From: Eledone cirrhosa
Taxonomy: Eukaryota
NCBI GenBank assembly: GCA_964016885.1
Contig: OZ024746.1
Coordinates: 101,556,001-101,620,000, forward strand
Direction: 5' to 3'
Length of the DNA: 64,000 nucleotides
Shown in pieces: positions 16,073 to 47,325 of this stretch. A program made the translations under genes and the position numbers. Each line of letters opens with the position of its first letter. The stretch's first letter is position 1. A model generated the notes under the pieces. It saw only the letters and a list, made by a program, of their open reading frames with translations. It was not told the DNA's origin and made no database searches.

Positions 16073-16337
16073 AAATGATACATGATATACCCTGACATGG
16101 TAGATGGTTAAGATTTAATCAAGGTAGTCTGCCACTGTAGAGTGCTTCCAATCTATTGTAAAACTCATTCTTTGATGTATTCATTGAATCTTGTTTAACT
16201 CTTAAATATATATGTAGGAGGTTAGTTTTATTGTAGCACAATAAAGCAATGCAAATATTGGATAAGTAGCACTCTACAGTTTGTAGGACTGGAGTATAAA
16301 TAATATAAGATCAAAAGATGGTTAAAAGAGTTCCAAG

Positions 16338-16408
16338 TATTTTATTATGCGCATTTCAAAAACAAATATCATCATGGGATGATATCTGCGTTCTCATCAG
16401 ATAAAATA
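16338..16408 (-). ncRNA. Type I hammerhead ribozyme motif (intact core)
   Basis: tattttat-CTGATGA-long stem II-GAAA-tgcgca (palindromic stem III)-TA-ataaaata. Confidence 0.85.
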
Positions 16409-16499
16409 GGGAGACATGATATGAAGCTTAAAAAACACTTGTGTTGATTTAAAACTTCACTATTCACAAGTGTTTTTTAAGCTTCATATCATGTCTCCC

Positions 16500-16570
16500 T
16501 ATTTTATCTGATGAGAACGCAGATATCATCCCATGATGATATTTGTTTTTGAAATGCGCACAATAAAATA
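16500..16570 (+). ncRNA. Mirror hammerhead motif with mutated cleavage triplet
   Basis: Same as 16338-16408 but reads GAAA-tgcgca-CA, so the conserved U is lost. Confidence 0.7.
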
Positions 16571-16677
16571 CTTGGAACTCTTTTAACCATCTTATGATCC
16601 TATATATATATATATATATATAACAGAAAAGACGAGGAAGTTTTGTTTACATATGAATAATATTTATTGCGTATCGA

Positions 16678-16766
16678 CATGTTACGGGTGTTTCACAGAG
16701 GATTGGCTCAGGTGACCCATAGAAGTTATGGACCTGACTCCAGTATAGATCTGCTCCTCAGACTGG
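16678..16766 (-). ncRNA. Hammerhead motif, CTGAGGA type with long stem II, inside an element bounded by ~55-bp inverted repeats (16624-17003)
   Basis: CTGAGGA-gcaga...tctgt-GAAA-cacccg-TA-acatg. Stems I and III are degenerate. Confidence 0.6.
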
Positions 16767-17079
16767 TGATGTGACAAAAGATATATTTTTGTTGTAGTAT
16801 GTAGACCGAGAAGGTATATAGGCATTGGCCCTATTTTTTGTGTGTGGGTGTATGTGTATATTGTGGTGTAATTTGCGGCGGTGGCAATGGGGGTGTGTAT
16901 TAACCAGTATTCATGTGCGTATTTACAGCAGTGTACACGTAATTAAGGTCAATACGGAATAAATATTCTTCATACAGAAACGAAACTTCCTCGTATTTTT
17001 TCTATGATATACATTCTGCCTGTGAGTTTGGTACCAACACCAGTATTTCACCATACTTCCTACACTATATATATATATA

Positions 17080-17495
17080 CATCATCATTTCCATTTTATA
17101 TCCATTCTTTCACGCTAGCATGGGTTAGACGGGTTGTCCTGTTGTGGGTAATGCCAGGTCATACAGAACTTATTTGGGCTTGGTTTCTACAGCTGGATGC
17201 CCTTCCTAATGCTAACCTCATTTACAGTGAGTACTGGGTGCTTTTTGTCATGATACCTACACAAACACTTTACAGTGTGGGATGGGTACTTTTTGTCATG
17301 TCATCATCACAACCTCTTTACAGTGTGGGCTATGGGCTTCACTGGATGTATGCTTCAGCCTGTCCTCATAGATGTGTGGGGGTGGGAGGGGAGGGTGGTG
17401 AATGCTATATATATGCTTCAGCTTCAGACTATACCCGTTGCAGGGCGGGCCTTCTGTATTACTGCATAACCCCAAACATCTGTCTTGTATCATAA
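17080..17495 (-). mobile_element. RTE-LINE 3' end fragment
   Basis: catcat tail, gctagcatgggttagacg, cagctggatgcccttcctaa. Confidence 0.75.
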
Positions 17496-17589
17496 TCTTC
17501 TTTGAAAGGTACAATTGTGCATATATTATGTATTATATTAGATTATATATATATATATGTTATATATATATATTATATATATATATGTG

Positions 17590-18278
17590 TGTGCAATAGT
17601 AATATATGCGAACGGCAAAACATAAATGAACTAAGTGAGAAATTAGGAATAAGAGGGATCAGATGCTGTTTACTCGGGAGAAGACTGCGTTGGTATGGTC
17701 ACGTGATGCGCATGAAAGATGACAGCTGTATAAAAAAGTGCAGGGCGATCAAAATTGATGGAAGTTATGGAGTAGGTAGACCCAGAATAACCTGGGATGA
17801 TTTGATAAATTCTAACCTTACACACTTGCACCTCTCTAAGACAATGTCACTGGACCGAGATCTTTGGCGCTACACAGTAATACAGAAGACCCGCCTTGCC
17901 TAAGTACAAAGCGAAATCTACAGTCAGTAGGCCCCTCCTAACCAAATATACACCCTATCCTACTACCCCTACCCCATCCTCCCACTCCCACCAACACCAA
18001 CCTTTCTCTGTAAAGTTATGTTGGTGCCACAACATCCAGTCCAAAATAAATGAGGTCGTGTGGATGTCACGACAAAAAAACACACAGTCTACACTGTAAT
18101 GTGGCCGTGTAGGTAACACGGTAAAAACCTCCCAGTTCACACTGTAAACGTGGTTGGTGTTAGGAAGGGCATTCAGCCATAGAAAACCTGCCAGATAGTC
18201 CTACACGAGCGAGACATGGCCACCCGACCAATCTTGCTTCTAGCTTGGAAGATAGACGTTAAACGATGATGATGAAGA
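17590..18278 (+). mobile_element. 5'-truncated RTE-LINE
   Basis: RRLRWYGHVMRMKDD...GRPRITW, 3' UTR and (GAT)n. Paralogous to 11545-12462. Confidence 0.92.
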
Positions 18279-44181: not shown

Positions 44182-44518
44182 AAGAATGAGAAATAAGATA
44201 GATTGAGGGGACGGGCAGGTTGGAATTGGAAAAAATGTCTTTAGATAAAAATAACAGGTCCATTCATGTTGACATCTCTTGCAAAATTGTTGGTGCTGGC
44301 GTTTTGTGTATGATTTATTTTTTAGAAAAGTGTATTGCGACTGCAACTTTGATTTATACCTATATATATTTATAACCAAAGATTAATATGGTTCATTGAT
44401 TACTCAATGAATATAGTTTTACAATAGATTAAAAGCACTCTACAACGCAATTTTCTGGAGTTATTAATATTATTCAGAATATTAATAAATGAAGATATTC
44501 ACATAATCAAAATATATG

Positions 44519-44580
44519 TTTTATTATATATATTTCGAAGGTACTGTTTTGTTTTTTCAGTACGTCCTCGTCAGATAAAA
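44519..44580 (-). ncRNA. Type I hammerhead motif
   Basis: ttttat-CTGACGA-ggacgtactg..cagtaccttc-GAAA-tatata-TA-ataaaa. Same family as 16006-16072. Flanked by ~27-bp inverted repeats at about 44466 and 44632. Confidence 0.78.
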
Positions 44581-44739
44581 TACATGAATTGATGTATGAC
44601 ATACCTTCATTTATTAATATTCTAAATAATATATATATTTATATATATATATATGCAAAAGTTTTATTTAAAATTGTTGGGTTACAACAAGTAAATATTT
44701 TATAACTGATATAAAGCACTCGACAAGTTTTTGGAGTAG

Positions 44740-45109
44740 ATATACGATATTAAACAAATGGAAACTATATTTATAAAACCATATTTATTTCATTATACAT
44801 ATTTCAGGGATACCATATTAAAAATATGGCATGCCTTCGTCAGATAAAATACAATATATAAACAGTTTTATAAATAATTTTGACGTACCATAATATAAGC
44901 GACCATTAAATTAGGAAGCTGCCTGGGTAGCTTCCTAATTTAATGGTCGCTTATATTATGGTACGTCAAAATTATTTATAAAACTGTTTATATATTGTAT
45001 TTTATCTGACGAAGGCATACCATATTTTTAATATGGTATCCCTGAAATATGTATAATGAAATAAATATGGTTTTATAAATATAGTTTCCATTTGTTTAAT
45101 ATCGTATAT
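44740..45109. mobile_element. Fold-back module with 181-bp arms, each carrying a hammerhead (44786-44851 minus, 44998-45063 plus)
   Basis: Arms 44740-44920/44929-45109, spacer gcctgggt. Motif tattttat-CTGACGA-agg..cct-GAAA-tatgta-TA-atgaaata. Confidence 0.88.
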
Positions 45110-46067
45110 ATATATACGGCTGCTATTTCTAGCACTTTGCGCAACTCATTTTTTCTAAAAAAAAAATTTTTTTACTGTGAATTTAAACACCGAATACGCT
45201 CACTCAGCGAGACAACAGCAGCAGCAACAGCAATATAACAGCAACAGCAATACATCAATACAGCTTCACCAAAGCCAGAGAATTCATTTTTGCAGTACTC
45301 TTCCTGTGAGAAAATCCATTCGGAGGTTGGAAATTTCACGATATACCACAGAACAGAAACCACCTGCATTCATTCTCTGGAACACACTTTCTTTCCTGCT
45401 GTCATGTGATTGCACACCTGTGAACTATATTTTGAACTTTGAGCTCTTCTATTTCTTTTACTTTATTACATTGTATCTTTGGGTGATGGATAGATGGATG
45501 TCCAGTCGTTCTCTGGCCAAGAGCGGTTGGCTACCTTGATATCTATCATTGATTTTTCCAAACATTCTTTTGTCGTAAATTTCATGCCTGTTACAACATT
45601 CTCGCCAACTTGCTACATATTTTCATTTCGATTTTTATACACTAAAATTCTGGCGGGAGGTTATGTAGCGGTTGTCTCCCTTGTTTTGATTGGGATCTAG
45701 ACGGGAAGTGGAACCCTTTCTGCAACTTCCGGTCAGAGCCCTATAAAACTAACAACTTTAAGCTTCCTTTCTCTCTTTGCCTTTTCGGCACCAGGTCAAG
45801 AGTCTTCTCATTTGGCTCTGCCATTAATTTGGCCAACAGGCGCCTGGCCTTAGCCAGGCGCCCTCTGCCAGCCGCGTTTGCCTGGCAATCAAAACGGTAA
45901 CTACTAACTTTGTTTCATTCTAACATCTATCTTTGACATGTCAAGTATTCTATCTACCGTTAATTAAATATTATATACACAAACCATGTCTCGTTTTGTT
46001 ACATTCATACAACCTTAGTATCATTGCTATAGTACTATTGGTTACATTGTTCTTCAATTAAATTCCT

Positions 46068-46477
46068 TTGGCGGTACTCAGTAACAGAGAAGACCCGCCT
46101 TGCCAGTAGGCATCTCTAACAAAATACACTCCGTCCCGCCACCACCCCCACCCCATCCACACCACCCCGTTCTATGTAAAGTTATGTTGGTGCCGCGCCA
46201 TCCAGGCCGAAACAAATGAGATCGTGTAGGTGTCACGACAAAAAAACACACAGTCCACGCTGTAATGTGGCCGTGTAGGCAACACGGTAAAAACCTCCCA
46301 GACCCACACTGTAAATGTGGTTGGTGTTAGGAAGGGCATCCAACTGTAGAAAACCTGCCAGACAGTCCTATGCGAGCAAGACAATCACTCTTGCCTCAAG
46401 TGGGACTACCCCCGTCCAAACCCATGCAAGCATGGAACACGGACGTTAAACGTTGATGATGATGATGATGATGATGA
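46068..46477 (+). mobile_element. RTE-LINE 3' end
   Basis: Highly similar to 11905-12462, with a (GAT)n tail. Confidence 0.9.
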
Positions 46478-46701
46478 TATATATTCTTTTCAAATCTTAT
46501 ATCCATAACATAAATATTTCATCAGATGAGCGTATTGGACATTTCTGTTAGGACCATCTAGTTTGGTAATGGAATAATTATATTGTGTTGTTTATGTAAT
46601 TAAATAGCTCTGTACAATACATAGAGCACTCTTCTTTCCTTTATCTTTTCTATGGAAATACTTAACATACACACATACACATATATATATATATATATAT
46701 C

Positions 46702-46910
46702 ACCTTGATCACCTTGACCGACCAGTCTGTCGGGCGGCAATCGGCGCAGCTGGTCACAGCACGTCGTGCTGTTTTAGCCATAAGATAACGCCATCCCACT
46801 GGCTAGGCGGGCAGGCCGGTACTCATTTCTACAGCTGAGTAAACTGGAGCAACGTGAAATAAAGTGTCTTGCTCAAGGAAACAACACATCACCCGGTCCG
46901 AGAATTGAAC
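46702..46910 (-). mobile_element. SINE family 1 variant with a different 3' tail
   Basis: ctcatttctacagctgagtaaactggagcaacgtgaaataaagtgtcttgctcaagg is the reverse complement of the family 1 core. Confidence 0.8.
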
Positions 46911-46932
46911 ATATATATATATATATATATAA

Positions 46933-47325
46933 TGTAGGAGGTGACTTTTATTGTAGCACAATAAAGCAATACAAATATCGGATAAGTAGCACTCAACAGT
47001 TTATAGGACTGGAGTATACATAATATAAAATTAAAAGATGGTTAAAAGAGTTCCATGTATTTTATTATGCGCATTTCAAAAACAAATATCATCATGGGAT
47101 GATATTTGCGTTCTCGTTAGATAAAATAGGGAGTCATGATATGAAGCTTAAAAAACACTTGTGAGCAGTGAAGTGTTAAATCAACATATGTGTTTTTTAA
47201 GCTTCATATCATGTCTCCCTATTTTATCTGATGAGAACGCAAATATCATCCCATGATAATATTTGTTTTTGAAATGCGCATAATAAAATACATGGAACTC
47301 TTTTAACCATCTTTTGATTTTATAT
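46933..47325. mobile_element. Fold-back hammerhead module, copy B (plus-strand HHR 47220-47290 intact; minus-strand 47058-47128 has core CTAACGA)
   Basis: Colinear with 16213-16605 (offset 30720). Arms 47023-47163/47185-47325. Confidence 0.85.

Follow-up and report, generated by a model that had tools for sequence, protein, structure and literature searches.

The stretch examined here, a window of 64,000 nucleotides (nt) from the Eledone cirrhosa genome (assembly GCA_964016885.1, contig OZ024746.1), carries two palindromic modules, copy A at 16213-16605 and copy B at 46933-47325. Both are almost certainly short insertions of a Penelope-like element (PLE) into (TA)n, each made of two pseudo-long terminal repeats (pLTRs) placed head to head. 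The module represents the 3′ end of the parent element, namely a pLTR with a hammerhead motif and a tail of 82 nt. Parent positions are counted along a reference locus (L031) read tail-first, which runs on beyond a CATATG motif into a pyrimidine-rich 3′ untranslated region and then into the C-terminus of an endonuclease, at the end of the open reading frame (ORF).

Direct comparison of A and B, each 393 nt long, reveals 36 differing positions (BLAST E value 3e-158). The original prediction for this locus, which viewed the copies as flip/flop isomers of one module, correctly described the tail as lying in the same orientation in both and the spacers between the arms as matching in reverse complement (18/21, compared with only 8/21 directly). 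It also held that the junctions between arms and spacer are identical, and here the two copies disagree. On the parent scale, the joint of A links 231 with 254 by an overlap of 2 nt, whereas that of B links 258 with 226 by an overlap of 1 nt, and B has CATATG near its spacer. The 141-bp arms of A differ by 3 mismatches and the arms of B by 7. Two of the latter, at distances of 3 and 5 bases from the supposed spacer, arise because B retains CATATG where a mirror image of A would read CACAAG.

The "spacer" itself is parent positions 232-252, covered by the longer arm only. Since the longer arm supplies the unpaired stretch, this stretch runs backwards in A and forwards in B. Each copy is 27 nt short of a perfect palindrome centered on CATATG, which explains their equal lengths. 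Thus, both orientations are real, but A and B are two non-mirror products in which the loop only seems to flip, as either arm can be the longer one. The features of the two copies are collected in the table.

Table. Features of copies A and B and their flanks (window positions).
Feature	Position	Strand	Remark
Copy A tail, parent 1-82, one arm only	16213..16294	-	element sense is the minus strand
Copy A tail arm (shorter), parent 83-231	16295..16443	-	
Predicted type I hammerhead motif, A tail arm	16338..16408	-	descriptor scan; predicted cleavage 16345/16346 (parent 133|134)
Copy A tail-less arm (longer), parent 254 down to ~83-91	16442..16605	+	contains "spacer" 16444-16464 (parent 252-232)
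Copy A joint	16442-16443		2-nt overlap
Copy A right end	as far as 16614		merges into (TA)n
Predicted hammerhead motif, A tail-less arm	16500..16570	+	descriptor scan; one change beside cleavage site
(TA)n target right of A	16606..16622	.	shorter TA run left of tail, ~16206-16212
Copy B tail, parent 1-82	46933..47014	-	
Copy B tail arm (longer), parent 83-257/258	47015..47190	-	contains "spacer" 47164-47184 and CATATG 47185-47190
Hammerhead core, B tail arm	within 47015..47190	-	substitutions present
Copy B tail-less arm (shorter), parent 226 down to ~83-91	47190..47325	+	1-nt overlap at 47190
Predicted hammerhead motif, B tail-less arm	47220..47290	+	descriptor scan
(TA)n target right of B	47326..47352	.	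TA run also left of tail, ~46912-46932

Ends, arms and joints of copies across the genome

A search of the 3.0-Gb genome with A returned 669 first-look candidates, 40 of which were scored. Among 67 loci found with A and B, the centers vary widely and most are unique. All of them derive from one linear sequence, with each insertion consisting of a tail arm (position 1 to X) that faces a tail-less arm (about 83 to Y). The original prediction that the palindrome is either propagated as a unit or formed at a fixed site is therefore only half retained: centers that differ from copy to copy do not suit propagation as a unit, and a tendency of arms to end at position 257 agrees with a fixed site.

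A 33-nt pattern spanning the junction of tail and arm has 1,398 exact sites in the genome compared with none for a reversed control. We tallied the first 93 of 100 listed junction sites, all on a single contig (C1), and left out 3 previously examined loci (two of which have the shorter tail arm). This left 90 copies in order of position, of which 72 have the head-to-head form, 15 lack a second arm inside 75 nt, and 3 extend past the end of their stretch. The tail arm is the shorter one in 42 of the 72 pairs, the longer one in 17, and equal to its partner in 13 (p=0.0015), and base-level values are 43, 18 and 11. An arm extends beyond position 265 in 30 of the 72 pairs, reaching 3 kb, which places the palindromes at the short end of a continuum.

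Two named junctions were found in 20 copies with a short tail arm (one of the 20 has a templated insertion, and two may be duplicates of each other) versus 4 exact mirrors. Identical junctions recur in three to four subfamilies that differ by 4-12%. The original prediction had suggested that spacer orientations in a ratio of about 1:1 would support a hairpin intermediate. Neither the exact mirrors (20:4, p=0.0015) nor the split of longer arms (42-43 versus 17-18) approaches this ratio. On the basis of the varied centers and the 20:4 mirror ratio, we reject a fixed loop that is flipped as a unit. Among 30 loci anchored by ORF sequences, an inverted tail arm lies beside the long arm in 14. Twelve of these tail arms end at or before position 107, several of them within the tail itself, a part missing from the long arm (two of the loci, L235 and L236, look like duplicates). 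Separately, three insertions carry the tail on both arms (L062, L184 and L215).

The outer ends are fixed at positions 1 and ~83, and a TA run ends the tail-less arm in 40 of 45 scored cases. The inner ends are variable but pile up sharply at 257, with 33 of 144 arms ending at 255-260. Genome-wide, 3,321 sites (some loci counted more than once) start at 257 with a non-parent flank, versus 115, 44 and 38 at positions 133, 135 and 131. An arm that ends at 257 finishes in the self-complementary sequence ATAT (254-257), such that two of these ends give a perfect center through an overlap of 4 nt, or a center two bases longer through an overlap of 2 nt. Both types are observed, and the perfect 20-bp center is present at 905 genome sites. 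The lengths of the two arms are also linked: where one arm ends at 255-260 (23 pairs), the other extends past 265 in none (permutation mean 11.5, with 0 of 100,000 as low).

Arms within one copy differ by 2.1%, compared with a median of 8.1% between copies. In 89 copies, 475 variants are symmetric and 235 asymmetric, and those private to one copy comprise 10 that are symmetric and 84 that are not. At joints free of insertions, an overlap of at least 2 nt is seen in 16 of 22 (five with both ends at or beyond 255 were left out) versus 19% expected. Insertions of 1-53 nt, the longer of which are copied from nearby, are carried by 18 of 45 short joints. Joints with insertions of 6-53 nt copied from adjacent arm ends (L153, L176, L187, L203, L214, L107, L110 and L111) resemble polymerase-theta joining or repeated jumps of the reverse transcriptase (RT). 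At the outer end, 13 of the 90 copies (L145-L234) have the tail, whose own first bases are TG, separated from the TA run by at least two TG units, and this may reflect repeated copying at the RT start in the style of telomerase.

Strand-change joints of the same family also occur in restriction-site-associated DNA (RAD) reads that another study obtained from two individuals. They lie at parent positions 257|31 (with a single start place), 255|99 (seen in both runs), 243|95, 222|153 and 164|20, and the reads also show arms that end in (TA)n at 83-91.

The parent element and its hammerhead motif

One locus (L098) includes an open frame of 760 amino acids (3210-5492) with an RT core carrying YRDDG and with C-terminal endonuclease motifs (VY..YLG). 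This frame was aligned to seven relatives, and 39 relatives were identified at E≤1e-10 among 8,000 scored. Motif names follow PMC8557442 or common usage. A single ORF with an RT and a predicted C-terminal endonuclease of the GIY-YIG type is characteristic of endonuclease-containing (EN+) PLEs. So is an inverted, 5′-truncated copy with a one-ended tail, as seen in the 72 head-to-head copies of the 90. In partial tandems, the tail is followed by a leader of ~80 nt and then by the start of the ORF, so that the tail lies just before the ORF. Pseudo-LTRs that derive from partial tandems are present in L238, L249, L250, L255, L260 and L335-L339.

Octopus Hydra elements are already published (PMC8557442), and the motifs described there for the Hydra clade, which includes Hydra-1_Obim of Octopus bimaculoides, are also found here: DKT, a CxCx5C linker, and CxxC and CxH around a conserved E and N. 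The C-terminal endonuclease, the hammerhead and the (TA)n targets are likewise shared. In contrast, the motif RWK is replaced by RWI in 30 of 31 translations (6 of the 7 aligned relatives have RWK), the repeat unit in L337 is ~3.7 kb where Hydra-clade elements are "generally <3 kb", and Hydra-1_Obim is listed without a pLTR. Because of the RWI sequence and the unit length, we name the parent Hydra-like and do not file it as a member of the clade, the likeness being judged by the described motifs and targets. The Neptune clade, our first guess, was dropped once the linker was read as CxCx5C and DKT was recognized. A non-LTR retrozyme, which is defined by head-to-tail monomers that each carry a hammerhead (10.64898/2026.07.22.740005), does not fit copies that are head-to-head and continuous with an autonomous element.

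The L098 frame has an Asn/Ser-rich stretch of ~70 amino acids ahead of the zinc-finger linker that is present in none of the seven aligned relatives. N-rich inserts have been described in rotifer Penelopes (PMC3846280). L098 (contig C4) and L099 (contig C2) are near-identical compound insertions that represent a segmental or assembly duplicate.

A descriptor scan for type I hammerheads yields 7 matches in the window versus 0.07 per shuffled window. Between families, the hammerhead core and stem I are kept and stem II is replaced. The putative pLTR hammerhead has a short self-complementary loop III, and its predicted architecture is like that described in PMC4209133. A search of Rfam gave no hammerhead match, returning only miRNA-like matches below threshold, and minimum-energy folding of the motif is unremarkable (z 0.16 to -2.25). 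Hand inspection of 30, 21 and 20 sites at position 133, which is the predicted cleavage site, and at 135 and 131 leaves ~16, 17 and 13 true ends (19/30 by script). Scaled to the genome-wide counts given above, these correspond to ~61, 36 and 25 true ends, a weak excess of ~2-fold at the predicted site. As the excess is this small, we do not claim that ribozyme-cleaved RNA is a major template.

Proposed twin priming and competing accounts

We favor, with a probability of roughly 0.7, a mechanism in which a single RNA is twin-primed from two fixed start sites, with run-off at the RNA 5′ end and joining by microhomology. The endonuclease would cut both strands of the (TA)n target, after which one target end would prime complementary DNA (cDNA) synthesis at position 1 and the other end at 83. 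Both cDNAs would extend at most to the RNA 5′ end, which for the short class would be 257, probably a transcription start within the pLTR. The cDNA 3′ ends might then anneal, often via ATAT at 254-257 to create the perfect center; otherwise, one cDNA end would be trimmed or would stop short to leave unequal arms. Strand displacement would operate where the arms overlap on one RNA, and a shorter tail arm would fit a block at the second primer.

The two-strand cut, the priming at 1 and 83, the run-off and the annealing are steps that we infer. A tail on the short arm with none on the long arm points to two primers, one per cut target end, and the linked arm lengths suggest that both arms were copied from the same RNA. 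The simplest interpretation of position 257 is an RNA 5′ end, judging from the genomic ends and a partial match to an initiator-like consensus. Snap-back and later trimming may contribute to the equal-arm and B-type copies, including B itself. The broader proposal, that Penelope-type integration is routinely two-ended, using one RNA and two fixed sites, and that the short palindromes arose by run-off at the transcription start, we hold at slightly better than even odds.

Several points weigh against this account. The tally comes from one contig, needs X to be at least 107, counts 3 internal pLTRs among its copies, and includes too few of the very long tail arms. The absence of long partners among the 23 linked pairs is also predicted by snap-back or by a trimmed perfect palindrome. 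In 48 of 89 copies, the arm of another copy is closer than the partner arm, so arm identity marks a shared subfamily or source and not a single molecule. Five copies (L015, L040, L048, L208 and L209) combine a perfect center with a one-arm deletion at some distance from that center, indicative of a second step. An RT stop at an upstream U-rich tract could also be the source of the 257 ends, and strand displacement for overlapping arms is an assumption. Short-loop joints like those of A and B are not among the joints listed from the RAD raw reads, and searches of Pfam and of PDB sequences with the L098 frame gave no match.

The account nearest to the original prediction is self-priming, wherein a cDNA folds back and copies itself and the resulting hairpin is resolved; PMC3846280 explains palindromes in this way, by self-priming on an antisense RNA template. 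Snap-back of a 257 end would yield the center seen at 905 sites, and self-priming would account for the arm linkage and the symmetric variants and could produce B-type and equal-arm copies. However, a fold-back copy cannot bear a tail that is absent from the longer arm, yet the shorter arm has the tail in 43 of 61 unequal pairs, and tail-only inverted arms adjoin arms of 3 kb. The mirror isomers, moreover, are not at 1:1. Given this asymmetry of the tail, the antisense self-priming proposed in PMC3846280 does not fit, and we consider self-priming an unlikely general explanation.

The original prediction had likened the copies to the hairpin-resolution replication of parvovirus and poxvirus termini. 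A replication intermediate is a likely cause, but the viral analogy is unsuitable, as the module derives from one end of a Penelope-like retrotransposon. Flip-flop termini of these viruses also have an unpaired stretch in both orientations between inverted arms. Here, in contrast, there is neither a fixed pair of mirror isomers nor a 1:1 ratio, and the copies are interspersed retroelement insertions rather than genome ends.

Still less probable is the insertion of a perfect CATATG palindrome that is later trimmed on one side, by repair of a break at the center or by slippage, or inverted by recombination between the arms. In mouse transgenes, perfect palindromes are known to be trimmed on one side, and the five copies with a perfect center and a one-arm deletion show that such products exist here. 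The 4 exact mirror isomers and the loss from both A and B of 27 nt relative to the perfect form can be read in the same way. Trimming cannot, however, yield arms beyond 258, as required for the 30 pairs that extend past 265, nor can it create centers that are two bases longer or insertions that are templated. Judged by arm divergence, perfect copies are no younger than the others, with a mean of 2.2 differences (n=10) versus 2.5 (n=32) and 2.8 (n=19), although the small numbers make this a weak test. Recombination between the arms would produce exact mirrors, but A and B do not mirror each other exactly.

It is very improbable that the copies belong to a non-autonomous palindromic element, similar to a foldback element, a miniature inverted-repeat transposable element (MITE) or a retrozyme, spreading as one unit whose spacer is fixed. 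One junction does occur in 14 of 89 copies, including 9 from a single subfamily, in a set enriched by the use of A as the query. Nevertheless, identical junctions are found across the three to four diverged subfamilies noted above, and the junction of A together with the recurrent one accounts for ~20 sites genome-wide among thousands, most centers being unique. Finally, long palindromes are prone to assembly and read fold-back artefacts and the junctions of A and B are taken from the assembly, but this explanation is scarcely credible when the arms within each copy differ and stop in (TA)n at the same parent position, and when strand-change joints of the same family appear in the RAD raw reads.

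Neighboring families, known systems and significance

Other palindromes accompany A and B in the window. A related family is represented at 44740-45109 by a palindrome with 181-bp arms and an 8-nt spacer, in which each arm bears a hammerhead motif and the left side has a tail-like stretch. Three pieces at 15945-16205, 44370-44640 and 47730-47990 are likewise head-to-head and belong to another related family; they are 74-88% alike. This family has hammerhead motifs at 16006-16072 and 44517-44582, and one of its pieces abuts copy A within the same TA run. Two more palindromes beside (TA)n, at 42855-43411 (260-bp arms, 37-nt spacer) and 3725-3994 (63-bp arms, 6-nt spacer), have a common 100-nt segment at 85%; the descriptor scan detected no hammerhead in either, and they are possibly another Penelope-like family. 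Long satellites occupy 30499-35546 (units of 42-43 nt), 35670-39996 (21-22 nt) and 54129-64000 (8 nt).

The element type itself is known. Insertions of EN+ PLEs with inverted pLTRs, tails and junction palindromes have been published (PMC3846280, PMC8557442), and the copies described here share with them the head-to-head inverted 5′-truncated copy, the one-ended tail, the junction palindromes, the partial tandems and the pLTR hammerhead. They differ in a tail of 82 nt, where 30-40 have been reported, and in the thousands of pLTR-only insertions with a common inner end. The same two papers call the origin of PLE inverted repeats and one-sided tails unresolved.

The closest biochemical parallel is the Poseidon element of Anolis, whose purified PLE protein cuts and extends both strands in vitro and starts at two RNA sites that bound the tail (PMC11167929). 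The starts at 1 and 83 proposed here match this two-strand, two-site activity. AT-rich targets, a tail region at the junction of pLTR and ORF, and two internal RT starts flanking the tail are common to both systems. Poseidon belongs to another clade, however, and the available part of PMC11167929 has no derivation of the inverted structure and no reads ending at the ribozyme site.

Twin or dual priming by L1 (PMC2837659) similarly involves two target-primed cDNAs, an internal joint and an inversion as the result. The L1 pieces are non-overlapping and the second site is variable, whereas here the second site would be fixed, the overlap would create a palindrome, and the outcome is common (72 of 90 copies). 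We found no twin-priming account of PLEs in the literature searched, for which coverage of subscription papers, including older Penelope reviews, is incomplete.

Thousands of natural products with base-precise ends separate the competing models and provide exact predictions: that the RNA has its 5′ end at 257, that RT begins at 1 and 83, and that both strands are needed. Such predictions are suited to the in vitro system of PMC11167929. If the proposed twin priming is correct, then the genome directly maps both RT start sites and the RNA 5′ end, and the inverted pLTR and one-sided tail would be explained by twin priming and strand displacement in place of antisense self-priming. Many short palindromes of this genome are thus retrotransposon products, which annotation could mistake for MITEs or microRNA hairpins.

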